Assembly: GCA_964648765.1 (NCBI GenBank)
Contig: CAZYLF010000001.1
Span: 12,155-76,154, forward strand
Reading direction: 5' to 3'
From: an uncultured Candidatus Saccharibacteria bacterium
GTDB lineage: Bacteria; Patescibacteriota; Minisyncoccia; Phycocordibacterales; JACOZG01
DNA length: 64,000 bases
Made by a program: the position numbers and the translations under genes. Below are positions 52-45,332 of the stretch, one piece after another; position 1 is the first letter of the stretch; each line of letters begins with the position of its first letter. Under the pieces are notes generated by a model that saw nothing but the letters and a program-made list of their open reading frames with translations, did not search any database and was not told the origin of the DNA.

Positions 52-2151
52 CTACGCGACAGCCAGAGCCTCCTCAATGTCGGCCGTCGAGCTCACCGGA
101 ACGATTTCCGCCCAGCTCACTCGCCGCAAACTGAGACTCGGCTCACCAAGTGAAGCAAGGCTCACAGTCTGCTCCATCTTGCCGGTCTTGCTATTCTTGA
201 CCGGTGTGGGAGTAATACCCTGGAACAGCTTGTTGCCGCTTTTCTCCATCGCAAACAGGATCAAGCGCTTAATGCAGCGCACCACCAGCAAACGCTTACG
301 CACTGCCTTGGCCTTCTCCTCAGCCTCTTCAAGTGCAGTCACCCGACTAAAGTCAGGGGTTGCCGCAACCTTAAATCCCTTGAGCTCATACTTAGAGGCC
401 GCTGCCGCGTAGCTGTCACTTGCCTCAACCTTAGTCCGCTCAGGATAAGATGGAGCAGTGCCCGTAGAAACGCGAAGCGCCTTCACTCGGGCATTGATCG
501 CCTTCTGCTCGGCCTCCAGCATGATCTCTTCCTTCATCAAATCAATAAGGCCAAGTCCCTTAGGGTTGGCCCATGAAGAAACAATCATCGGCAACACTGT
601 GAGGTCAAGCGTGAAGAGCTTAGTCTCCGAAAACCGGAGATTGTCAGCGATCACGCCCCACTTCTGACAAAGCTCAAAGGCCTTCTTTGTAAGATAGGCT
701 TCGAGAGTGTCTTGGTGGAGACTACCGTCTTTGATAATGACGTAGTTCCGGAAACGCTGTCCGTCAACCCACTTGCCGGTATCCTCATCCTGTTCCTCCA
801 CATCAACTTCCGTCTTCATGGAGAAATTGAATCGTTCCTGATTCGACTGAATCTCAGTCATCTTGATCTTGGCATTCGGCTTGGGACGCACACCTTTTTC
901 GATCACCGTGGCGGTGGTCTTTTGGTATGTGCCACGAGGGATGAATACGGTGCAATCTTCTTCAAGAAGCACCCGAAGTAAATTGACCACACAAGCGGCC
1001 TCACCAGCTCCGATAAACTTCTTGGTTGAGTAACGCTGACGGATACCCGTGTCGATAATGATTCGACGCAATTGATCCCCCACCTCGAGACGTTCTCGGT
1101 CGGTGTAAGCACTGCCCGCCATCATGCCAAGCATGTTCTGCCCAGCTTCCTGGAGAATCTTGGATGATGCAACCAGATCACCAGTTTGGAATGCCCACGA
1201 GGCAAACGCCAATGAGGCATCCAGCGCACCACCTTCAGACAAAGCCTTGGTGGTAATCGGTTCGGCATCAAACGCCTCGCCGTTCACCTTGCCACTCATG
1301 GTCAGGCTAGTTGTCCCGGTTGGGAGAACCACAAACAATGTGACCTCACCATCGTGGAGAGACCGGAGTGTTGCCACTCCATTATCCCCAACTCGATCCA
1401 CTTGCGGAGTTGCTCGGAGAACCATTCCTGGCTTCCCCTTGCCGCCCGTAAATGAAAGTTGCGCGTCAACAAAACTTGTTGCGCGACCAGTGGCCAGAAT
1501 ATCGCTAATCACCGGACCAAAAAGTCCGATGTCATTGATATGCCGATTAACACCAGTCCCACCATTTTTGCGAACGAGATCAGCCAGAAAGCTGGCATTG
1601 TAATAATTGCCGTAACCCAAAGTGGACAAGCTTGCGTCGTGGCTCAGACCCAAAGTTTGAGCATGTTCCACAGACTGCGCGACCTCTTCAGCCTCACTCC
1701 AACGAGAGGGTACGGGGCAACCATCAGTAAACAACATCAAATGATGTTGTAGACCACCAGCATTTTCCACACTCTCAATCACCCGCTCCAGACCTTCTGA
1801 AAACACGGTGTTGCTGAGAGTGTGAACGGCCCCAATTTCTTCAACCAGCTGCTTCTTCCCCCGAGCATCGCAGACCAAAGGACCAGCCAAAAGCTTGGCT
1901 TGGTCGTGACCGCTAAAGATAATGATCGAGGCCAGGTCAGCGGGATTCAACGTGCCGATGAAGGCTTGCAGATCCCTCTTTACCTGATTCAACGCCCAGG
2001 CCATCGAGCCTGAAACGTCCCACTGAAGTAGCCAATGTACTGGCCCAGCAGTTGGTGGCCGACTTGCCCTCAGAACGACTTTTGCCACCGTGTTACCGGT
2101 GGCTTTAAGAGTACCCAACTCGCAACTCACGACCTTCAGATCGTTCCTCAA
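52..2151 (-). CDS. vWA (von Willebrand factor A) domain protein, 699 aa, GC-rich foreign-looking gene
   Basis: N-terminal MIDAS-like motif DVSGSM (DxSxS) with downstream T and D residues typical of vWA. The ORF begins with TTG preceded by GGAAGGAG. GC is about 55 % against about 42 % for the neighbouring genes. The C-terminal approximately 450 aa were not recognised. Confidence 0.6.
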   Translation of the reverse strand: MRNDLKVVSCELGTLKATGNTVAKVVLRASRPPTAGPVHWLLQWDVSGSMAWALNQVKRDLQAFIGTLNPADLASIIIFSGHDQAKLLAGPLVCDARGKKQLVEEIGAVHTLSNTVFSEGLERVIESVENAGGLQHHLMLFTDGCPVPSRWSEAEEVAQSVEHAQTLGLSHDASLSTLGYGNYYNASFLADLVRKNGGTGVNRHINDIGLFGPVISDILATGRATSFVDAQLSFTGGKGKPGMVLRATPQVDRVGDNGVATLRSLHDGEVTLFVVLPTGTTSLTMSGKVNGEAFDAEPITTKALSEGGALDASLAFASWAFQTGDLVASSKILQEAGQNMLGMMAGSAYTDRERLEVGDQLRRIIIDTGIRQRYSTKKFIGAGEAACVVNLLRVLLEEDCTVFIPRGTYQKTTATVIEKGVRPKPNAKIKMTEIQSNQERFNFSMKTEVDVEEQDEDTGKWVDGQRFRNYVIIKDGSLHQDTLEAYLTKKAFELCQKWGVIADNLRFSETKLFTLDLTVLPMIVSSWANPKGLGLIDLMKEEIMLEAEQKAINARVKALRVSTGTAPSYPERTKVEASDSYAAAASKYELKGFKVAATPDFSRVTALEEAEEKAKAVRKRLLVVRCIKRLILFAMEKSGNKLFQGITPTPVKNSKTGKMEQTVSLASLGEPSLSLRRVSWAEIVPVSSTADIEEALAVA

Positions 2152-5932: not shown

Positions 5933-6454
5933 TTATCGAGTGACTGAGATCGCTGTTGTGCTCTCAGCGTCACACGAGCCCACTGTTACAGAACCATTAA
6001 CACTTCGGCTCATGTAATAACCCGTACGAGCTGTTGTCCAACTACCTGAACCATTTGGATTAACTGGCATTTTGCCCAAATAACCTTCGTCTACAAGCGA
6101 TTGAAGATTTACACAATTTGCAGCTGCGGTAACGAAGGAACATCCAGTATCGCAAGCGGTAGTCGTTGTTCCATTACTGATTTGATAATTAGTGACCGGA
6201 TTAGTAACAACGGCGGATGGCCCAGTGCCAAAGAAACGTAAACCATAAGCATACGCTCCACGATTATCAACTTGGTCAACTTTAATAGCCGAGAGAATGG
6301 CGGTAACATCAGTCCAACGGCTAGCATCGCGTGCATCACGGAAGCGAGTTAAAGGATCTAGAGACACAAACACAACACCAGCCAAGATCGCAATGATCGC
6401 GATAACGATCAAAAGCTCAATTAAGGTAAATCCCTTCTTAAAATTTTTCTTCAT
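5933..6454 (-). CDS. type IV pilin (prepilin-type N-terminal cleavage/methylation domain), probable major pilin
   Basis: N-terminus MKKNFKKGFTLIELLIVIAIIAILAG is the class III signal peptide (G/FTLIE, Glu at +5) followed by a hydrophobic helix. Confidence 0.85.
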   Translation of the reverse strand: MKKNFKKGFTLIELLIVIAIIAILAGVVFVSLDPLTRFRDARDASRWTDVTAILSAIKVDQVDNRGAYAYGLRFFGTGPSAVVTNPVTNYQISNGTTTTACDTGCSFVTAAANCVNLQSLVDEGYLGKMPVNPNGSGSWTTARTGYYMSRSVNGSVTVGSCDAESTTAISVTR

Positions 6455-6536
6455 AATAATGTAAATTTTTAATAAATTAACCGACTAATTATCACTTGAT
6501 TCTACAATACTTGCGCCAAATGCCTAGTGGATAACG

Positions 6537-7622
6537 CTATTTAATGGGGATATATGGGTCTCGACTTAGTCTTTCGCCTTTTATCCCCCTCATGGCCAAA
6601 CCTAAAGCCTCTAGATACAAATGAGCCTCGCTAGAAAATAGCGACCGATGCTCACCAGCCTGCACCAGAATTGGCGCAATGATAGGTAAAATAGTTTTTA
6701 AGCGAAACTCTTGATTAAAATATTCTGCTAGGCCAGGTAAACGCGCCGAGCCGCCAGCAAGCACAATTAATTCTGGTGGCAAACCGGCATGCGCCGACCG
6801 GTCAGCAAAAGTTGCGCGCATGTCAGCTAAAAGTGGGGCTAATTCCTTTTTAATAATTTGCCCAACTTTTGCCTCCGGACCATTTAGACCATTTTTTATT
6901 TTTAAAGCTTCGGCAGTGGGAGTAGGGAGTTTAAGTTCCTTAGCGATAGCTCCAGTTAAAACATCCCCAGCAATCTGATTAACAAATGTGTAATAAAGTC
7001 CTGACGGTCCAAACAAAGCAATAAATGTTTGCCTTGCGCCAATATCCACCAAACAGATATTTTTTCTAGGATGACTTGGCTCTATCCCCCGCCAGGTAGC
7101 CACCGTTTCAAGTTCAAAGGCATTAACCTTAACATTAATTGATTTGAAAAAGTTATCCCAAGTGGCCACAGCATCACTGTCGGCCACCAAAATTAACACC
7201 CTGGCTTTACCAGTGGCATCATCGATAATTTTGTGTGACACAATTTGACGCGCCCTAGGTAATGGCACATGCTTTTCAGCCATTTCACCCACCAACTCTT
7301 TAAGTGCCAATTTATTTGTCACCACCGTTTCATCTGGCACAAAATAATGAGTATAAAAATGCCGCTCGGGTAAACCAAAAGTAAAAGTCTCGCCCGTCAT
7401 TGAGAGGGGTTTGGCGTTTGCTAAAGTTTTTAAAACAATTTCAGCTAAGCGCTTCTCGTCTTTAATTAATCCTCCCACCACCACGCCAGCCGGTATAATT
7501 TGCCGAGCTAAAGATTTAATTTTTAGAGTTTTACCACGCGCGGCCAGCGTCACCACCTCAATGGCACTATCTGAAATATCTATTCCAGCCGACTTGTTTT
7601 CTCCCCAATTAAAATTAAACAT
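6537..7622 (-). CDS. pilM: type IV pilus assembly protein PilM (actin-like ATPase fold), copy 1
   Basis: 361 aa; N-terminal GIDISDSAIEVV and later VDIGARQT segments typical of PilM/FtsA-like ASKHA fold; embedded among pilin genes. Confidence 0.7.
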   Translation of the reverse strand: MFNFNWGENKSAGIDISDSAIEVVTLAARGKTLKIKSLARQIIPAGVVVGGLIKDEKRLAEIVLKTLANAKPLSMTGETFTFGLPERHFYTHYFVPDETVVTNKLALKELVGEMAEKHVPLPRARQIVSHKIIDDATGKARVLILVADSDAVATWDNFFKSINVKVNAFELETVATWRGIEPSHPRKNICLVDIGARQTFIALFGPSGLYYTFVNQIAGDVLTGAIAKELKLPTPTAEALKIKNGLNGPEAKVGQIIKKELAPLLADMRATFADRSAHAGLPPELIVLAGGSARLPGLAEYFNQEFRLKTILPIIAPILVQAGEHRSLFSSEAHLYLEALGLAMRGIKGERLSRDPYIPIK

Positions 7623-8481: not shown

Positions 8482-10218
8482 TTATTTATAATCTAATCTT
8501 ACCTCGCTCACGCTCGGAGTGCTCACGCCATCACCAGTTAGGAAAATCTGATATTGGGCAAAACGATTACCATTTAAAATTTTTGGAATTAACGTGCCAC
8601 TTGCAAGTGTGAAGTAACTCCCTGCTCCGCTTGGTCCTTGCCAGGCGCTCCAGGTGCCAGGGCTCCCACCAGAATCTGGCGCCACCCGAATTTGAAATTC
8701 AGCTCTACATAGTGGGGAACAAACAGGAATAGTTTGAGTCCACTCAATTAACTCAATTGGCGAAACGCCAACCATATCAAAAATTGATGAAATTAAACTT
8801 CCGGAAGTTAAGTAACCGCCACCACTTAGACGGATAATCCGTCCGTTTGCCCCCACAGCAAAACCAGTGCTTCCATTTAATGAAATACCAAATAAATTAT
8901 TGGTCGCAGGGAGTGGTGAGTAAATAGCCCACGTGCTGCCGTTCCAGCGGTAAATATCTCCACCATTTCCAACCACAAAACCGGAAGACGGTGAGGAAAA
9001 GTGAACTTCATTCCACGTATGATTACCAGTGTCTACAAACTCGCTCCACACCGTACCATTCCAACGCAATATTTTCCCAGATGCACCGACCGCCCAAGCA
9101 TCAGTAGCCGAGGTAAATGCCACGCCATTTAGTGCATTGTTTACTGGTGAAGTGATGCTGGTCCACGTGCTACCATTATAGCGATAAATATCTCCACCAT
9201 TACCAACAACAAAACCAAGCGCGGGTGAAGCAAAGTCGACATCATTCCAAGCTTGATTTCCGGTGTCCACAAACTGAATCCAATTGTTACCATTCACCCA
9301 ACGTAAAATTTTTCCCGTGGCTCCCACAGCCCAAGCCTCACTGACCGAAACCATTTTCACCGAGTTTAAATTATTTGTTACTGGTGAGGTCATTACTGCC
9401 CAAGTGGATCCACCAGTAAAACGTCTAATTACCCCTCCATTACCGACCACAAAACCTGAGGTCCCTGAAAACATGCTGACGCCATTCCAGACGTCATTAC
9501 CAGTATCTTGAAAACTTGCCCAATTACTCCCATTAAGCCGGATTATGAATCCTGCATTACCCACCGCAAAACCAGAAGTGGGAGAAACAATTGAGACATC
9601 ATTTAAAGTTTGGGTTGTCGGCGAGGTGGTAGTCGCCCACACAAGTGGCGCGCCTTTAAGTCTCAACTCGCCGGGGTTTGCTACCGCTTCAATATTTCCG
9701 TTGTCACTCAGATAACGATTAGCGACTGACCAATTGGTTTGCCCCGAGCCTCCAGACCAATCAGTTTGGCTCCAACGCTTTGAATCCCAATTTGTAAGAC
9801 GCGAACGGCGGACCGCCTCGCTTGTTTGCCCCGGGCGTGGCGACCAAGACACTCGCACATCCACATCGCGAGTCCGGAGATCAACGGGAGTAAAATTAAT
9901 TGTCCTCGTAAGGCGACCACCGATCACCTCATTTGCTCCCTCACTCGTAAATGCCCAGACCCCAGTAGAACTTGAAACTGCCGTTTGACTGAAAGTTAAC
10001 TCATTCCAACCGCGATTTTTGATTGCCTTAACAGCCCCAAAGCCCTCATTGGCCAACATATCTGCTTCCAAATTATCTTGAGATTGCAAAGCCCCGCCCC
10101 CTCCACCAAGAGTAAGTGAGGCTAAACTTGAAGCGACGATTGCAAAAATTGCCAAAGCCAAAACAGCTTCAAGAATACTGGCTCCCGTTTTACTACTCTT
10201 TGAGACTTTTATAATCAT
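8482..10218 (-). CDS. pilin-like N-terminus fused to a multi-blade beta-propeller (Ycf48/BNR-like repeats); putative pilus tip adhesin
   Basis: The N-terminus KTGASILEAVLALAIFAIVASS is pilin-like (G, then E at +5, then hydrophobic helix). The body contains at least five tandem repeats of about 45 aa. Each follows the pattern GF-VGN-G-I-R-NGS-W...SP-NN-LN-V...AWAVGA-GKILRW, which resembles Ycf48/BNR-type propeller blades. GC is about 50 %. Confidence 0.6.
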   Translation of the reverse strand: MIIKVSKSSKTGASILEAVLALAIFAIVASSLASLTLGGGGGALQSQDNLEADMLANEGFGAVKAIKNRGWNELTFSQTAVSSSTGVWAFTSEGANEVIGGRLTRTINFTPVDLRTRDVDVRVSWSPRPGQTSEAVRRSRLTNWDSKRWSQTDWSGGSGQTNWSVANRYLSDNGNIEAVANPGELRLKGAPLVWATTTSPTTQTLNDVSIVSPTSGFAVGNAGFIIRLNGSNWASFQDTGNDVWNGVSMFSGTSGFVVGNGGVIRRFTGGSTWAVMTSPVTNNLNSVKMVSVSEAWAVGATGKILRWVNGNNWIQFVDTGNQAWNDVDFASPALGFVVGNGGDIYRYNGSTWTSITSPVNNALNGVAFTSATDAWAVGASGKILRWNGTVWSEFVDTGNHTWNEVHFSSPSSGFVVGNGGDIYRWNGSTWAIYSPLPATNNLFGISLNGSTGFAVGANGRIIRLSGGGYLTSGSLISSIFDMVGVSPIELIEWTQTIPVCSPLCRAEFQIRVAPDSGGSPGTWSAWQGPSGAGSYFTLASGTLIPKILNGNRFAQYQIFLTGDGVSTPSVSEVRLDYK

Positions 10219-35082: not shown

Positions 35083-35541
35083 GTTAAATGCAAAAATCCC
35101 AAAGGCCACCGCCACGTTGAGTGACTCTTTGCGACCACTCATTGGTATCTCGGCAATCACATCAACTTTGTTTAAAATACTTTTTTCTATCCCCCCTACT
35201 TCGTTACCCACAATTATAGCCGCCTTACTTTTTAATTTTATTTTTTTGTAATTAACCGACTTTGGATCTTGCTCAAGAGCGACTAACTCGTAATTTAGAC
35301 CTTTCAATTTATTAAACAAAACTGAAACACTTGGTATTGCCTCCCACTTCACAAACCCCTCTGCCCCAAGTGAGGCTTTGGTGAGCTTTTTATTGGCCCT
35401 ACCAAAACGATCTAGTGGTGAGGGTGTGTAGCCAGTGAGGTAAATTTTGCTCACCCCGGCCGCTTCTGCGGTACGGAAAATGCTACCCACGTTCTCCGTG
35501 CTGCGTACATTATGAATTATTACCACTATGTCCTTTTTCAT
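35068..35541 (-). CDS. SpoU/TrmH-family RNA 2'-O-methyltransferase
   Basis: SPOUT motifs HNVRSTENVGSIFRTAEA, IIVGNEVGGI, and IPMSG..ESLNV. Confidence 0.75.
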   Translation of the reverse strand: MKKDIVVIIHNVRSTENVGSIFRTAEAAGVSKIYLTGYTPSPLDRFGRANKKLTKASLGAEGFVKWEAIPSVSVLFNKLKGLNYELVALEQDPKSVNYKKIKLKSKAAIIVGNEVGGIEKSILNKVDVIAEIPMSGRKESLNVAVAFGIFAFNLLEH

Positions 35542-35568
35542 TTAGTTGATTCACGCTACAATAGCCTA

Positions 35569-35898
35569 ATGTTTAATCTTTTTCCAGATCTTTTGAATTA
35601 TAGTTTTTTTGCTCCCTTAATTTTGCGCTTGGGGCTTGGGGTATTATTAATAATTAGTGGACTTAAAAATTATAATGGTTTAACTACCGACAAACTTAAT
35701 CAGACCTTAAATCTCATCTCACTGGTGGCTGGATTTTTAATTTTTCTTGGTGCTTACACCCAAATCACGGCAATTGTTTTGGTTATCGCAACTTTATTTA
35801 GTAAAACCAGTTGGCAGAACAAAATACTCATTACCGCCATAGCCCTCTCCCTCATCCTCTCCGGCGCCGGCGCCTTCGCTCTCGACTGGCCACTTTAA
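35569..35898 (+). CDS. DoxX-family membrane protein
   Basis: Small, three to four TM helices with LRLGLGVLLI pattern; start at the internal ATG. Confidence 0.45.
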   Translation: MFNLFPDLLNYSFFAPLILRLGLGVLLIISGLKNYNGLTTDKLNQTLNLISLVAGFLIFLGAYTQITAIVLVIATLFSKTSWQNKILITAIALSLILSGAGAFALDWPL

Positions 35899-35904
35899 AA
35901 TTTT

Positions 35905-35957
35905 AGACAAAAAATAATAGGCGTTGCATCTTAACGACGCAACGCCTATTTTTTTGA
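35905..35957. terminator. bidirectional rho-independent terminator
   Basis: 9-bp perfect stem aggcgttgc/gcaacgcct with T-runs on both strands. Confidence 0.6.
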
Positions 35958-35978
35958 GCCACCGAAGCAGTCTAGTTA

Positions 35979-36149
35979 TTAATCAATCAGCTTGGTGGGG
36001 AAAAAATTACCCGCCCGCTCGAGACTGACTGCCCCCTCTTCAACCTGGTTGAAAAGCACCTCAAACAACTCCATGACTCCGAGGTTGTAGTCCATCTCGC
36101 CCTGATCGGGCACAATCACTTCAGCTGCTTCATTCACTAACTTTTTCAT
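35979..36149 (-). CDS. small acidic protein, 56 aa (second gene of GC-rich two-peptide cassette)
   Basis: ATG start with stop TAA; translation MKKLVNEAAEVIVPDQGEMDYNLGVMELFEVLFNQVEEGAVSLERAGNFFPTKLID. GC-rich. Not in the supplied ORF track because it is below the length cutoff. Confidence 0.4.
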   Translation of the reverse strand: MKKLVNEAAEVIVPDQGEMDYNLGVMELFEVLFNQVEEGAVSLERAGNFFPTKLID

Positions 36150-36176
36150 GACCTGTCCCTTTTTTCAAAGTTCTGT

Positions 36177-36347
36177 TTATCCCGAGCGCACGCTCGAGAA
36201 TTTTTTTGCCATGTCCTCGTGGATCGTGGTCCAAATGTCCTTACTTCCCGCCTCCTCCCCTTCCCTTCTGCAGAGAAGAGCAGTAGAACCATACATAGAC
36301 AAGGTCACAACGACCACCAGCAACACAACCTTCAATTTCTCTTTCAT
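36177..36347 (-). CDS. small secreted/membrane peptide precursor, 56 aa from internal ATG (first gene of GC-rich cassette)
   Basis: MKEKLKVVLLVVVVTLSMYGSTALLC signal-like N-terminus, then a charged 30-aa tail. The tracked ORF starts at TTG 36374; the ATG at 36347 has an AAGGGTG SD-like sequence upstream. Confidence 0.4.
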   Translation of the reverse strand: MKEKLKVVLLVVVVTLSMYGSTALLCRREGEEAGSKDIWTTIHEDMAKKFSSVRSG

Positions 36348-36387
36348 TACTGATTCACCCTTTCGTATCTTCAAAAGCGCACCTGAG

Positions 36388-36420
36388 AATCACCACCACG
36401 CCTTACATTACTATTTCCAT
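36388..36420 (-). promoter_or_regulatory. strong sigma70-type promoter (TTGACA, 18 nt, TACAAT) driving the two-peptide cassette
   Basis: Reverse complement of approximately 36385-36425 reads tacTTGACAaattgggctattttatgcTACAATggaaatag. Coordinates approximate. Confidence 0.5.
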
Positions 36421-36492
36421 TGTAGCATAAAATAGCCCAATTTGTCAAGTACTCCTGGCTTTTAGCCATACATTGTGGTAAAAATAAGCATT

Positions 36493-36565
36493 CCGCCCGT
36501 AGCTCAGTCGGTAGAGCAGCTGCCTTTTAAGCAGACGGTCGTAGGTTCGATTCCTACCGGGCGGA
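36493..36565 (+). tRNA. tRNA-Lys (anticodon TTT)
   Basis: Acceptor ccgcccg/cgggcgg, D-arm gctc-agtcggta-gagc, anticodon loop cTTTTaa, T-arm gtagg-ttcgatt-cctac, discriminator A. Confidence 0.8.
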
Positions 36566-36618
36566 CACTGTTTAACAAAAAAAAGGACGCATAGCATGTG
36601 CTACGCGCCCTGTGTGAC

Positions 36619-36864
36619 CTAACTTGCTTCCGGTTTCTTATCAGGATAAAGTGGCCTGACTTCTGCCCTCGAACGCCCGTTGGGTTTACACTTCGGGCAA
36701 CTCTCCTCAAAAACTAAAACGGCCCCTACCGCCCCTTTCTTAAAATGGTCCTCCAAAGTCTCTTCCACTTTTACTGTGGTAAATTTTCTGAAGGTTTTTT
36801 CCCCCACCCTATAGTGCTTACCGCACGCGAGACACCGAAACTCCAACTTCAAAGGTACTTTCAT
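36619..36864 (-). CDS. zinc-ribbon protein, 81 aa (CxxC...CxxC)
   Basis: CLAC...CPKC. GC-rich. Putative TTGACA promoter upstream (weak -10 TAGCCT), SD AAAGGGGGG, and a hairpin terminator downstream before tRNA-Lys. Confidence 0.5.
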   Translation of the reverse strand: MKVPLKLEFRCLACGKHYRVGEKTFRKFTTVKVEETLEDHFKKGAVGAVLVFEESCPKCKPNGRSRAEVRPLYPDKKPEAS

Positions 36865-36916
36865 TTTCCCCCCTTTCTGCTCTGGAGGCTAGCACACCTA
36901 ACAAATAATGTCAATT

Positions 36917-37567
36917 TTAGGCCACCCTTCTTTTCTCCATCATTTTGGCGTTCCCATCTGAAATTAATTTTCGAGAAAGTGATTTCCCGATTATTTCTGC
37001 ATGAACTTTGGTCTGTTGAGCATTTTTAAGATCACCAAGCAAAATAACTATGTCACCGTTTGTTTTTACCTTTTCTGGATTAGTAGTCACATCTATTCTT
37101 AAAACACTTCCTTTAAACTCAAAAAAGGCGTCCGTGCCGTAGAGTGTGTCTAGGGGTGTATCTGCTGAGGTAAAAAATTTAAGTTCATGTAAATCCTCCA
37201 TATCAATATTTAAAGCTTCCGCAACCTCGGCATATAAATCGCCAGCGAAAACATTATGCTTTTCACCATTTTCATCCATGCTTAGAGGCTCGAGGGGATT
37301 CCAATGTTTAGGTTGATTATTTTTTGCCCAATCGAGTAGTATATTTATTTTATCCTCCCTTCTCATCCTACCCCATTTATCCGCATCTTCTTTAGGCAAA
37401 TGTTTCTCCACCCAATCACGGACTATCATTTGGGCTGAATCGTTATCGTCCTTATCCTGTGCACTCAAATAACCGCCACTATTCCAGTCACACTCAATAG
37501 TAGACACAGCTTCAAACTCCTTTGTTTTGCCATCATCTCCTGAATATGTTTCCCATGAATTTTTCAT
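36917..37567 (-). CDS. hypothetical acidic protein, 216 aa
   Basis: Uninterrupted ORF; no motif recognised. Confidence 0.4.
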   Translation of the reverse strand: MKNSWETYSGDDGKTKEFEAVSTIECDWNSGGYLSAQDKDDNDSAQMIVRDWVEKHLPKEDADKWGRMRREDKINILLDWAKNNQPKHWNPLEPLSMDENGEKHNVFAGDLYAEVAEALNIDMEDLHELKFFTSADTPLDTLYGTDAFFEFKGSVLRIDVTTNPEKVKTNGDIVILLGDLKNAQQTKVHAEIIGKSLSRKLISDGNAKMMEKRRVA

Positions 37568-42293: not shown

Positions 42294-42340
42294 AAACAAA
42301 ACAGGGGCGAATGCACAAGTGCATCCGCCCCCTTTTTTTT
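42294..42340. terminator. bidirectional rho-independent terminator between the desaturase and the island gene
   Basis: Hairpin ggggcgaatgcacaagtgcatccgcccc with CTTTTTTTT on plus and TGTTTTGTTTTT on minus. Confidence 0.6.
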
Positions 42341-42986
42341 ACTCGCCTCTCTGGTGGGCTTTCCCCACGTCCAGTCCCGAACGAAGCTTCCTCTTTTTCT
42401 TTGTGGCCTCCTGCACCAACGATCGCGGATCTGCGCAGTGCACCCACGTGCCACCATCCCGAGACTGCGCGTCAGGCTTGTAGCGTTCCCACTTCAGGCC
42501 ACCCATCTCGGAGAGCAGCATTGAGCCGTCACTCGTCTCCAGAGCGGTGAGGTGGATGTCGTAGCCAGCCTTCTCAGCGAGCTGCCATAACGTCACTCCC
42601 TCAACAGGTGTGAGGGGTGAGAAGTCCAACCCCTCATCCAGCCCTTCCATCACGAGCGACACCCGAAAGGTGCCGAAGGCGCGCTTGGCATACTCACCAA
42701 CAAATGCCCAGCGCTCCGCACGGAGCTTGCCGTCACCCGAAGGTTCCCCCTCAATGAAGACGACGGTCTTCCCGACCATGTCTTCGTTCACATCCGCTGC
42801 CCCATGGGCAGAAATGTGAATTTTGGGCAGGGCGTACTTCCGATCTGGCATTACCCGACCGTAGGTCTTCTTGTGAAGACCGAAAATGAGCTGCGTCTCA
42901 GCCTCGTAGGCAAAGACAAGTCCACGGTCCGCCAAAACCTTGGTGATTGTTGCCACACGCACTCGGCCGTTCTTCTTGCCCAACAT
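42339..42986 (-). CDS. hypothetical protein family A, copy 1 (215 aa; beta-rich N-terminal region, Lys/Arg-rich C-terminal tail), GC-rich island
   Basis: Start at internal ATG with GGGAGA SD. It shares VxV.T..T..A.GL and GKT.V(V/F)I segments with the 201-aa neighbour. GC is about 60 %. Confidence 0.55.
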   Translation of the reverse strand: MLGKKNGRVRVATITKVLADRGLVFAYEAETQLIFGLHKKTYGRVMPDRKYALPKIHISAHGAADVNEDMVGKTVVFIEGEPSGDGKLRAERWAFVGEYAKRAFGTFRVSLVMEGLDEGLDFSPLTPVEGVTLWQLAEKAGYDIHLTALETSDGSMLLSEMGGLKWERYKPDAQSRDGGTWVHCADPRSLVQEATKKKRKLRSGLDVGKAHQRGE

Positions 42987-43057
42987 AATAGTTCTCCCAT
43001 ATCTCAATGTTCACTTTAGGGGGGGCGACAATCGCCTACTCCATTTGTTTGTTTCCG

Positions 43058-43093
43058 ACTTACATCCTACACTATTTTAAACTAAAAGTCAAG
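43058..43093 (-). promoter_or_regulatory. repeated promoter module, copy 1 (TTGACT, 17 nt, TAGGAT)
   Basis: 36-nt sequence acttacatcctacactattttaaactaaaagtcaag is identical to 43848-43883. Reverse complement is cTTGACTtttagtttaaaatagtgTAGGATgtaagt. Confidence 0.5.
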
Positions 43094-43100
43094 TACTAAT

Positions 43101-43145
43101 TAAACAAAAAAATGGGTCGGTCAATGTTTTCACATCAACCGGCCC
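43101..43145 (-). terminator. hairpin terminator after the 201-aa gene (ggYcggt...aaccggcc family)
   Basis: Imperfect 13-bp stem ggtcggtcaatgt/acatcaaccggcc, followed on the minus strand by a T-run. Confidence 0.5.
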
Positions 43146-43184
43146 GGCATTTGGCCCCCGCCATTTGCCTACCCCCTTTGAGAA

Positions 43185-43790
43185 CTACTTAGCCGCACCC
43201 ACCGCCGCCCGCTCACGTTGAAGCCTACGCAACTTCTTCGTCTTCGCCGGTCGGAGGTAGAAAGGACGAGCATTCTTCCTATTTCCGTCGGGTGGAACCA
43301 TGATCACCTGTCGACCCGAACGCGACAGCTCCTTCCAATCAAGCTCAATTGCTCGCTCCAAGCTTGGCGGTTTCAGACAATCTTCTTCATCACGAACCTT
43401 CTTGAGCATGGCTTGTTCCGCTTCAATGCGCTTCAGATTCTTCTCAACCTGAAACATCTCGCGATCACACTCCATCACAAACTCAAGCTGATCGGTTCGC
43501 GCTGACTCGAACTGTCCCAAGTGACACCAGCCAGTGGCGCTTGGGTTCTTCTTTGCCGCGTCTTCGGCCGAAACCGAGGCGATAACGACAATGGTCTTTC
43601 CGGCCACGGGCGGGACAATCTCGTCCCCATGAACTTCCTGAAATGAGAGGTTGCCCTTTCCCCAATCGAAACTGACGTCACGACAACCCAGCTGCCCGAA
43701 CCAGTACTCGACACCATTCGCATCAACGGCTTTGCCCCAAAAGAGGCCATTTGCAGCTGTCACTACCGTTCTGACTGTCACATTGAACAT
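43185..43790 (-). CDS. hypothetical protein family A, copy 2 (201 aa; basic C-terminal tail), GC-rich island
   Basis: ATG with GGAGAAAG SD. N-terminal VTVRTVVTAANGLFWGKA and AGKTIVVIASV segments parallel the 215-aa protein. C-terminus RPAKTKKLRRLQRER. Confidence 0.55.
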   Translation of the reverse strand: MFNVTVRTVVTAANGLFWGKAVDANGVEYWFGQLGCRDVSFDWGKGNLSFQEVHGDEIVPPVAGKTIVVIASVSAEDAAKKNPSATGWCHLGQFESARTDQLEFVMECDREMFQVEKNLKRIEAEQAMLKKVRDEEDCLKPPSLERAIELDWKELSRSGRQVIMVPPDGNRKNARPFYLRPAKTKKLRRLQRERAAVGAAK

Positions 43791-43847
43791 CGCTTTCTCC
43801 GTAAAGATCTGCCCATTATCTCCACCACACGGCGAAGATTTATATCA

Positions 43848-43883
43848 ACTTACATCCTACACTATTTTAAACTAAAAGTCAAG
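43848..43883 (-). promoter_or_regulatory. repeated promoter module, copy 2 (identical 36-mer)
   Basis: Exact duplicate of 43058-43093, placed about 60 nt upstream of the 201-aa gene start. Confidence 0.5.
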
Positions 43884-43892
43884 GGGTAATGA

Positions 43893-43934
43893 GGTAAAGA
43901 AATAGGCCAGTTAGTGTCTTCACACTAACTGGCC
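43893..43934 (-). terminator. hairpin terminator after the 175-aa gene
   Basis: Perfect 13-bp stem ggccagttagtgt/acactaactggcc with cttc loop. The trailing T-run is modest. Confidence 0.45.
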
Positions 43935-43957
43935 CGTCCGCACTCTGCGGGGCTATA

Positions 43958-44485
43958 CTAGCCAACCAATTCGGCAAACTGACTGAGCAGCTCCTGACTC
44001 TGCGCCTGGAGCTTCTGCTCCCCTTCTTCCTGCGCCGCTTCGAGATTTTCAACGAGCTCCCAGTACAACTTGGACGCCTCGTCCAGATCGAACGTTTCGC
44101 CAGAGACGTACTGTTCCAGTTCCCACGCCATCTGGCGAATGTCGTTGATGTCGTCCTCACTTACATTTTGGAGATCATCAATCGCAACTTTCAAGTTCGG
44201 AATCGTCGATGACCTCAGGAATTTCACCTGCTTGTTTCTGAAATGCTGCGTCACTTCGACGAGCACATCAACCGCGCGCTGCGGCGCAGTCCCCCACAGC
44301 GTGACGACATCCTTAATCTTCTGTTTGATGTCTGCCGTAAGTATGAAATGCCGAAATCGCGAGCGGCCATCACCCACCTCTTCACCTTTGAGATCCCTCC
44401 CCGTGGCCTTCTCAATCTCCACCTTGAGTGTATTGAGAAGCCCAGTGAAAAGTGCAACGGTTGGTACAGTGTTTGGTCCTGCCAT
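43958..44485 (-). CDS. hypothetical protein family B, copy 1 (175 aa; helical, acidic C-terminus), GC-rich island
   Basis: Start at internal ATG (MAGPNTVP) with AGGAGA SD; the tracked 5' extension would run through its own promoter. Homologous to the 193-aa neighbour (TLWGTAPQRAVDVLVEVTQHFRNKQVKFLRS vs AQWGEGKSEEAVETLRNAESHFKRQQVAYLRA; C-termini QELLSQFAELVG vs QSLVEQFADIM). Confidence 0.55.
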   Translation of the reverse strand: MAGPNTVPTVALFTGLLNTLKVEIEKATGRDLKGEEVGDGRSRFRHFILTADIKQKIKDVVTLWGTAPQRAVDVLVEVTQHFRNKQVKFLRSSTIPNLKVAIDDLQNVSEDDINDIRQMAWELEQYVSGETFDLDEASKLYWELVENLEAAQEEGEQKLQAQSQELLSQFAELVG

Positions 44486-44544
44486 GTGATTCTCCTTCCA
44501 AATCAAGTTGCTTTTGCAGTGCCGAAGTGACACTACCTGCAGTC

Positions 44545-44576
44545 CATTATACACGAATCAAGATATTTGTCAAGCC
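44545..44576 (-). promoter_or_regulatory. repeated near-consensus promoter, copy 1 (TTGACA, 16 nt, TATAAT)
   Basis: Reverse complement gcTTGACAaatatcttgattcgtgTATAATgg. Matches 45301-45332 with one mismatch. Confidence 0.55.
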
Positions 44577-44600
44577 CCCCCCTTCACACGGGTCGCTTTT

Positions 44601-44645
44601 GGGACAAATGAAAAGGCCGGTTGATGTTTTTAATACCAACCGGCC
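44601..44645 (-). terminator. hairpin terminator after the 193-aa gene (ggccggtt...aaccggcc)
   Basis: 9-bp perfect stem ggccggttg/caaccggcc, extendable to about 12 bp with one mismatch, plus flanking T-rich run on the minus strand. Confidence 0.5.
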
Positions 44646-44659
44646 CGGCTATTGCCTAG

Positions 44660-45241
44660 TTACATGATATCAGCAAACTGCTCGACCAGGGACTGGCCCT
44701 GGTTTGCGAGCGCCGCCTGCTTTTGGGCCTCGCTCTGCTGCTCGCGCTGCTTGGCCGCCTGCGCTTGCGCCTTCTTGCGATCGGCGTTCCGCTTCTCCTG
44801 AGCGGTGACGGCAGCTTCGCAAGTGTCGACAATCACCCAGTAGTCCTTCGACGCCTTGGTGACATCCACATTCTTGCTTTCAACCGCGCACGTGTCCAAC
44901 GCTTGGAGCAACAATCGGGCCGGATCGAGAAGATCATTCTCGACACCCTTGGTCGAAAGCTCCGCGATGAGCGATGCTAGCTTCTCCGTCGCGTGGGCCC
45001 GCAGGTACGCAACCTGTTGGCGCTTGAAGTGACTCTCCGCATTTCGGAGTGTTTCAACCGCCTCCTCGGACTTCCCTTCGCCCCACTGCGCGGCCGCCGT
45101 CCGGATCTTCTCCCGGATCTTGAACGAGAGTTCAAATCCAACAAAGCACGGGCGGCCACCATTGGCGCCAACTGCGGCGATGATGACAGCTTTGAAAGCC
45201 GCCATCATTTCACAAAACTGCTTGTAGGTAACGCTGACCAT
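44660..45241 (-). CDS. hypothetical protein family B, copy 2 (193 aa; helical, Gln/Ala/Lys-rich acidic C-terminal region), GC-rich island
   Basis: ATG with GGAGA SD; paralogue of the 175-aa gene; about 65-70 % GC. Confidence 0.55.
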   Translation of the reverse strand: MVSVTYKQFCEMMAAFKAVIIAAVGANGGRPCFVGFELSFKIREKIRTAAAQWGEGKSEEAVETLRNAESHFKRQQVAYLRAHATEKLASLIAELSTKGVENDLLDPARLLLQALDTCAVESKNVDVTKASKDYWVIVDTCEAAVTAQEKRNADRKKAQAQAAKQREQQSEAQKQAALANQGQSLVEQFADIM

Positions 45242-45300
45242 AATTCGTCTCCTCTATCTCAACGAACGTTCTGAGGTGCCGCATTGACACCATCTACCTA

Positions 45301-45332
45301 CCATTATACACGAATCAGGATATTTGTCAAGC
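45301..45332 (-). promoter_or_regulatory. repeated near-consensus promoter, copy 2 (TTGACA, 16 nt, TATAAT)
   Basis: ccattatacacgaatcaggatatttgtcaagc lies immediately 3' of the polA stop, upstream of the 193-aa gene. Confidence 0.55.

Follow-up and report, generated by a model that had tools for sequence, protein, structure and literature searches.

Two small genes between a DoxX-like gene and tRNA-Lys

The subject of this analysis is a compact minus-strand cassette of two small open reading frames (ORFs), ORF1 and ORF2, in a 64,000-nucleotide stretch of an uncultured bacterial genome (contig CAZYLF010000001.1 of assembly GCA_964648765.1; this whole stretch is hereafter called the window, and positions are counted from its first letter). 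The cassette lies between a DoxX-like gene on its left (35512..35898, plus strand) and a gene for tRNA-Lys(UUU) on its right (36493..36566, plus strand, 72.4 bits), which begins 45 bp from the -35 box of the cassette promoter. The DoxX label comes from a Pfam match (E = 0.01) that falls below the curated cut-off, yet the protein is conserved in relatives. An earlier note on this DNA had placed two short minus-strand ORFs in this gap as an independent promoter-to-terminator unit, the first with a hydrophobic leader and a charged 30-aa tail, and the second a 56-aa acidic protein. Each of these elements held up on closer analysis, and both ORFs look coding by codon statistics. Judging from its sequence, the cassette very probably specifies a bicistronic mRNA for two small proteins.

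ORF1 (36177..36347, minus strand) encodes 56 aa, with a hydrophobic N-terminus, MKEKLKVVLLVVVVTLSMYGSTALLC, followed by a charged tail of 30 residues; if translation began instead at a TTG at 36374, the product would be nine residues longer (65 aa). ORF2 (35979..36149, minus strand) also encodes 56 aa, acidic and without a hydrophobic segment. The two share one reading frame and are separated by a 27-nt intercistronic spacer (36150..36176, minus strand) that contains a weak Shine-Dalgarno-like AAGGGA and an in-frame TGA, so that the TAA stop of ORF1 (36179-36177) and this TGA stand between them. Ahead of ORF1, a Shine-Dalgarno-like GGGTGA (36360-36355) lies 7 nt from the ATG, and its predicted anti-Shine-Dalgarno duplex of -9.6 kcal/mol ranks in the top 3% of random 18-mers. 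The corresponding duplex of ORF2 is modest (-5.5 kcal/mol, top 22% of random). For the long genes of the window, complementarity upstream of the start is barely above random (mean -3.9 vs -3.4 kcal/mol), although longest-ORF starts were used and some gene starts may therefore be mis-set. Despite these weak signals genome-wide, strong Shine-Dalgarno sites were seen at the orphan ORF1 and at an 81-aa ORF on the other side of the tRNA gene. We rejected a tandem duplication as the origin of ORF1 and ORF2, which have no protein similarity and whose shared 13-nt repeat (36012/36187) is out of register.

Coding potential was scored as a codon log-likelihood, with a model that contrasts the codons of 36 long window genes with off-frame and antisense codons. 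Per codon, ORF1 scored 0.214 and ORF2 0.429. Both exceed all of the 73 spurious ORFs of 50-80 aa found inside real genes (maximum 0.168), and 56-codon fragments of true genes average 0.27, with ORF2 at their 92nd percentile. Every alternative ORF overlapping the cassette has a negative codon score. GC content by codon position is strongly periodic, reaching 0.61/0.23/0.61 in ORF2.

The promoter that had been reported on the minus strand, TTGACA-18-TACAAT, is present where the note placed it (36419..36448). It is of the sigma-70 type, with the -35 box TTGACA at 36448-36443, an 18-nt spacer and the -10 box TACAAT at 36424-36419, and it combines 11 of 12 consensus matches with an extended -10 TG at 36427-36426 (the spacer ends in TG-C). 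Block shuffling puts the expected number of 11/12 matches with TG at 0.02 per window. Sites with at least 11 of 12 matches number four in the 64-kb window against 2.3 expected, and all four are intergenic, just upstream of a minus-strand gene and pointing at it. A common style, CTTGACAAAT...TATGnTAnAnT, links the cassette promoter to the other strong promoters of the window. Similar -35 boxes, spacers and extended -10 elements were also observed in the promoters of cspA-like (cold-shock protein) genes of three related genomes (L017 at 9187-9224, L066 at about 9756-9782 and L039 at about 9074-9097). The L017 promoter is like that of the cassette at 14 of 18 spacer positions, and in all three genomes a conserved leader, ACAAAGTAGGT, comes after the promoter.

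Transcription would start near 36412, leaving a predicted 5' untranslated region of about 65 nt (36348..36412, minus strand), which we characterized by sequence, anti-Shine-Dalgarno duplex and folding. This leader folds like its shuffles (z = -0.63), and the cassette transcript minus its terminator also folds no better than shuffles (z = -1.39). An Rfam search of the cassette returned 0 matches. A non-coding RNA reading of the cassette was rejected on this empty Rfam result and on the unremarkable folding after removal of the terminator. At the far end, a bidirectional intrinsic terminator (35916..35950) sits between the convergent DoxX-like gene (plus) and ORF2 (minus). The earlier note had described it as a bidirectional terminator with a 9-bp perfect stem; bidirectionality stands, and the stem turned out to be stronger, with 12 perfect pairs (AATAGGCGTTGC/GCAACGCCTATT) or 15 pairs on the minus strand if one G-U is included. 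T-runs flank the hairpin on either side, so that it could end both the ORF2 and the DoxX-like transcripts. On the opposite strand, no promoter-like site was found within 35950-36420, and the sole plus-strand terminator-like site in the cassette, a 5-bp stem at 36183-36196, is within chance expectation.

The predicted proteins differ markedly. In ORF1, a short basic N-terminus leads into 20 uncharged residues (7-26), and a mixed-charge tail of 30 residues follows. Its maximum Kyte-Doolittle hydropathy (19-residue window) is 2.27, and AlphaFold2, run with no alignment, predicted one continuous helix over residues 2-55 at a predicted local distance difference test score (pLDDT) of 78.5. Read as a Sec signal, the N-terminus divides into n6 MKEKLK, h10 VVLLVVVVTL and c7 SMYGSTA, with S-T-A at -3..-1 and a possible cut after residue 23 that would leave 33 residues. 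It may thus be a Sec signal peptide or, equally, an uncleaved signal anchor; by the positive-inside rule an N-in/C-out orientation is predicted whether the protein is cleaved or anchored. No lipobox, prepilin motif, double-glycine leader or YGNGV-type motif occurs in the ORF1 sequence. Residues 24-56 have an isoelectric point (pI) of 6.77, a grand average of hydropathy (GRAVY) of -0.74, six basic against six acidic residues, and one Cys. ORF2, with 11 acidic versus four basic residues and a pI of 4.21, is presumed to be cytoplasmic and is predicted to be partly helical (residues 25-37 and 43-47, pLDDT 65).

Comparison of the slot among relatives

Searching Logan assemblies with the DoxX-like protein, we recovered an 84%-identical protein on contig L086 (SRR25435847), the nearest relative at this locus. 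This contig and the window run collinear for 6.3 kb, at 82% nucleotide identity, as far as window position 35911, 13 nt past the DoxX-like stop. Identity resumes at 36473 (98.9%) and continues through tRNA-Lys, where the L086 contig stops. In a gapped alignment of both borders, weaker homology on the tRNA side seems to extend as far as the -35 box, some 50 nt upstream of tRNA-Lys. From the blastn end points (35911 and 36473) and this alignment we set the variable, replaced segment at 35912..36440. Between the blastn end points lie 561 bp in the window versus 491 bp in L086, and their contents are unrelated: the global alignment is no better than shuffles (z = 0.16), BLASTP gave no alignment at E <= 100, and tblastx matched the flank only.

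In L086 the slot (6343-6833) holds a single, unrelated orphan gene of 105 aa on the minus strand (MTIVVKGDKVGTFSWELSKEMKDHF...), for which no match was found in Pfam, PDB or IMG/VR. This gene has a promoter-like TTGACT-17-TATGAT, a terminator hairpin of 16 pairs and a codon score of 0.169 per codon, similar to real genes. Since the L086 slot also carries a promoter, an ORF and a terminator, the layout of the slot is kept and its cargo is wholly different. The cassette had been suspected to be lineage-specific, and synteny rather than composition establishes that it is, with an unrelated gene in the slot of L086 and none in more distant relatives.

With the neighbouring SpoU methylase as a probe, the host was identified as an ultra-small Paceibacteria/Nomurabacteria-type member of the Candidate Phyla Radiation (CPR), with the best species-level relatives at 55-65% protein identity. 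In a scan of Joint Genome Institute (JGI) metagenomes with the DoxX-like protein, the closest relative reached only 37%. Relatives that keep the DoxX-like gene share the order holA-like, tRNA-Lys, DoxX-like and SpoU, and in three of them (L013, L020 and L041) the arrangement is extremely compact, the tRNA gene being separated from holA by about 10 bp and from DoxX by about 24 bp. Given this compact order, the window has two lineage-specific insertions around tRNA-Lys, the cassette on its 5' side and a second one on its 3' side. Across 31 genomes, the interval from holA to SpoU varies by kilobases and holds 63 ORFs of at least 60 aa. Among the 45 sequence groups from the relatives' genomes, 39 are singletons; the rest are the DoxX-like group and five small families.

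Homology searches left both ORFs as orphans. Pfam, NCBIfam, PHROGs and PADLOC gave no family match (E <= 1) beyond noise for either one, and no PDB chain was matched in a sequence search. Neither had a real relative in phage and viral collections (INPHARED by tblastn, and IMG/VR). The apparent IMG/VR relatives of ORF2 were rejected, since they cover 21 residues (48% identical) and their E-values refer to just 13 candidate stretches. Homologous small ORFs, which the note had proposed to seek by tblastn in related genomes, were likewise absent from the loci of 80 relatives and from the rest of the window. In a word-indexed protein search over 5.8 billion clusters, ORF1 and ORF2 each matched only themselves. 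An exhaustive phmmer/HMMER scan of 1.84 billion representatives, made with ORF2 as the only query, returned ORF2 itself and one repetitive protein of 4562 aa (P0003). We rejected P0003 as a chance match because its score adds up contributions of about 20-25 bits from each of many near-identical repeats.

We found no signs of a dedicated mobility system. No integrase, transposase or mobile-element gene occurs among the neighbours scanned or annotated, and no meaningful flanking direct or inverted repeats, att-like repeat or tRNA fragment (duplicated tRNA 3' end) were detected. On reading the terminator hairpin, we saw none of the RYYYAAC/GTTRRRY cores that mark attC-type sites. An integrase-mediated island or integron cassette was rejected accordingly, as neither an integrase nor att/attC repeats nor a duplicated tRNA end is present. 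As a separate observation, Logan short-read contigs of the window organism and of the relative break inside tRNA-Lys (the starts of L001 and L002, the ends of L086-L091), a pattern that points to heterogeneity among strains or to a repeat that co-occurring genomes have in common.

Composition bears less clearly on the origin of the cassette. The note had called it GC-rich and compositionally foreign, and this is weakly borne out: the bias is more visible at third codon positions than in total GC, which is 0.459 for the cassette; the window averages 0.428 (sd 0.049), and the cassette falls at the 76th percentile. GC content at third codon positions (GC3) is 0.63 in ORF1 and 0.61 in ORF2 versus 0.42 +/- 0.11 for 56-codon host fragments, placing them in the top 6% and the pair jointly in the top 3.4%. 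This bias is perhaps linked to expression, since high GC3 (0.73, 0.63 and 0.51) recurs in other genes with consensus promoters; S20, the only ribosomal protein gene of the window, speaks otherwise with a GC3 of 0.46. Composition as proof of foreign origin was rejected as weak on account of the unremarkable total GC, and by itself it would not have flagged the cassette as foreign.

A probable replaceable accessory unit and competing explanations

With confidence a little better than even, we read the cassette as a lineage-specific accessory transcription unit in a replaceable slot, flanked by the DoxX-like gene and tRNA-Lys, of a Paceibacteria-type (CPR/Patescibacteria) genome. It would be transcribed as one bicistronic mRNA of roughly 470 nt. 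Sec would either insert ORF1 into the membrane or export it, with its 30-residue tail facing outward and either cleaved after S-T-A or anchored, and ORF2 would remain in the cytoplasm. The cargo of the slot could be exchanged by homologous recombination via the conserved flanks, that is, the 3' end of the DoxX-like gene on one side and tRNA-Lys with its own promoter on the other. We infer homologous recombination as the simplest mechanism because integrase, flanking repeats and a duplicated tRNA end are all missing. Most likely the cassette serves an accessory function of the envelope that varies between strains, for example as a small membrane or surface protein and its cytoplasmic partner, rather than core metabolism.

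Several observations weigh against this interpretation. All other copies of the cassette are identical contigs of the same organism, and they lend no comparative support for conservation of the frames; with only identical copies known, selection on the ORF1 and ORF2 proteins is not measurable. The NCBI annotation calls ORF2 only (the Logan gene calls have both), and the structure prediction for ORF2 is weak, as its pLDDT indicates. The reading frame common to ORF1 and ORF2 leaves room for a split gene. A tail of ORF1 outside the cell and an ORF2 inside it would make a direct partnership less than obvious. Lastly, the slot may hold an ancestral cassette that diverged extremely, instead of a replacement.

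Flexible islands of other streamlined bacteria offer the closest parallel. Reports on such genomes describe additive and replacement islands in Alteromonas and Methylophilaceae and tRNA-proximal islands in Prochlorococcus (PMC10872708, PMC4898812, bioRxiv 10.1101/2020.12.28.424599), and genomic islands and gene transfer have been reported in Patescibacteria (PMC12455944). Like these tRNA-linked islands, the cassette sits in a conserved syntenic frame at a hotspot by a tRNA, with unrelated and mostly orphan genes in close relatives and with borders that are sharp against an 82%-identical flank. The features expected of a flexible islet are present, namely an adjacent tRNA, unrelated content, and flanks that match those of L086 at 82% identity on the left and 98.9% on the right. 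Unlike the islands, it is about 0.5 kb long, forms one transcription unit on the 5' side of the tRNA, lacks an integrase, a transposase and an att-like tRNA repeat, and resides in a CPR host. On this evidence, an orphan cargo in a tRNA-linked variable slot is an ordinary flexible-genome islet and not a new kind of system.

A second parallel is the phage moron, known from the lambdoid-phage literature (Hendrix, Juhala) as an independent promoter-gene-terminator unit inserted between conserved genes. The cassette resembles a moron in having its own promoter, short cargo, a terminator and a somewhat different composition, and in lying between genes that are adjacent in relatives. It differs in that it stands among chromosomal housekeeping genes rather than in a prophage, and shows no phage or viral similarity.

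Small toxins and bacteriocins, the two functions proposed by the earlier note, found little in their favour. Hok, Fst, TisB and GhoT are small membrane toxins of type I and type V systems, and ORF1, with 56 aa, one hydrophobic helix and a charged tail, is of similar size and layout. It is unlikely, in our view, that ORF1 is such a toxin, damaging the membrane, and ORF2 its acidic antidote, neutralizing it or controlling its expression. The compact bicistron with its own strong promoter would suit such a pair, as would a hypervariable slot, a frequent site of addiction and defence genes. However, membership of a known toxin or antitoxin family, a defining feature of type II systems, was not detected with PADLOC, Pfam, NCBIfam or PHROGs, and the cassette has neither a plus-strand promoter nor a structured antisense RNA. 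The partner here is a downstream protein-coding ORF and not, as in the type I and type V systems, an RNA or an endoribonuclease. Moreover, the order and sizes of the products (a hydrophobic peptide, then a 56-aa acidic protein) fit no described class, and positive-inside topology would put the ORF1 tail outside, away from ORF2. The single 105-aa gene in the L086 slot also indicates that the slot is not reserved for toxin-antitoxin modules. What remains of the toxin-antidote proposal is the generic feature of a small hydrophobic peptide. Still less probable is a Sec-exported bacteriocin or signalling peptide accompanied by an immunity or partner protein. Mature class II bacteriocins are cationic, amphiphilic or hydrophobic peptides, with a pI typically above 8 and often conserved motifs. 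The strong promoter, a short ORF1 precursor with a possible canonical Sec signal (small residues at -3 and -1, a 33-residue product) and a second small gene behind it would suit a Sec-dependent class II pair. The putative mature peptide is instead neutral and hydrophilic (pI 6.8), ORF1 has no double-glycine leader or YGNGV-type motif, and no ABC transporter, C39 peptidase, or processing or modification gene was seen among the neighbours scanned or annotated. ORF2 is acidic and soluble, lacks a membrane segment and gave no match to an immunity-protein family, and homologues are lacking for both ORFs.

Other explanations concern whether two separate genes exist at all. ORF1 and ORF2 could be the remains of one membrane-anchored protein of about 122 aa, split in two by nonsense mutations, which is in line with the shared frame, the 27-nt distance and the presence of only TAA and TGA in between. 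We consider this improbable: a shared frame would arise by chance one time in three, no intact ancestor is attested by a homologue of the fusion or of either half, ORF2 has its own ATG behind a purine-rich Shine-Dalgarno-like stretch, and clear coding statistics are kept in both halves. A degraded fragment of a larger gene, which the note had named as the outcome that would overturn its view, thus gained no support, and the shared frame is what keeps it in play. It is also rather unlikely that the region is transcribed but non-coding, as a spacer or non-coding RNA with chance ORFs, or that the ORFs are young de novo ORFs without function. The completely orphan status of both ORFs, the omission of ORF1 from the NCBI annotation and the many unverified short ORFs of CPR genomes are consistent with this view. 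The codon scores, above every spurious ORF and within the true-gene distribution, argue against it, as do the tandem, non-overlapping layout with Shine-Dalgarno-like sites and the lack of an Rfam match or of exceptional RNA structure outside the terminator. Finally, ORF2 could be a truncated small subunit of exonuclease VII (XseB), as NCBIfam PRK14063 matches its residues 26-50 (E = 0.021) and, on our reading of the sequence, an EEGxxSLExAxNFF stretch resembles the XseB helix-turn motif. This seems very improbable, since ORF2 would miss most of helix 2, and the match is to only one NCBIfam model, at 14.9 bits against a curated cut-off of 111. Pfam assigned no family to ORF2, the PDB search returned no XseB chain at E <= 10 and the exhaustive ORF2 scan none either, so that family membership is effectively refuted.

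An extension of the accessory-unit reading, which we regard as speculative, treats the gap between DoxX and tRNA-Lys as a fixed "expression slot" that swaps whole cargo without an integrase. The promoter would be fixed beside the tRNA and the hairpin terminator beside the DoxX-like gene, framing the cargo, and ORF1 and ORF2 might then form a new module of a membrane protein and an acidic partner, for example a CPR-specific toxin-antidote or phage-exclusion pair. For the accessory-unit reading itself, the interest of the locus is that it shows, at base-pair resolution, complete promoter-gene-terminator units differing between relatives. Because genomes of CPR/Patescibacteria are tiny and mostly syntenic, their sites of difference point to strain adaptation to hosts or phages. 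Here the difference comprises two fully orphan small proteins, one of them predicted to be membrane-targeted, behind one of the strongest promoter matches of the window. If they are expressed, the pair would be candidates for envelope or defence roles specific to the strain, a kind of function almost unknown in the CPR group.

Neighbouring genes and other features of the window

The genes around the slot encode mainly housekeeping functions. The neighbours scanned or annotated include a SpoU methylase, Fpg, a Mur ligase, RuvA, S20, a holA-like protein, an Exo/endo phosphatase, UDG, MgtC and PDDEXK; several others among them (p214, zn81 and p216) have no Pfam match. Directly upstream of tRNA-Lys, an extended -10-like TGgTAAAAA (36476-36484, plus strand) is kept in L086 and diverges from the cassette promoter.

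The second lineage-specific insertion (36619-37567, minus strand), on the 3' side of tRNA-Lys, comprises the 81-aa ORF (zn81) and a 216-aa acidic orphan (p216). The 81-aa product is zinc-ribbon-like, with two CxxC pairs, and its gene has a strong Shine-Dalgarno match and its own terminator (36584-36611). Searches of 80 related loci and of phage and viral collections found neither protein, and exact look-ups returned the same organism only.

Elsewhere in the window, a 173-aa type IV pilin-like gene (5933-6454, minus strand) carries an N-terminal prepilin methylation motif (Pfam N_methyl, E = 8e-10); genes of this kind are common in CPR bacteria. Two regions stand out in composition. At the window edge, a 699-aa gene (52-2151, minus strand) has a GC content of 0.53 and a GC3 of 0.57, and at 42339-45330 (minus strand) lie four consecutive genes of about 200 aa without a Pfam match, with GC contents of 0.52-0.59 and GC3 of 0.59-0.73. 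Two of these four (44660-45241 and 43958-44554) are paralogues at 29% identity, each behind a perfect 12/12 TTGACA-16-TATAAT promoter (45330-45303 and 44573-44546) with near-identical spacer and leader start. These promoters are nearly identical while the paralogues have diverged to 29% identity, and are thus better conserved than the proteins that they precede.

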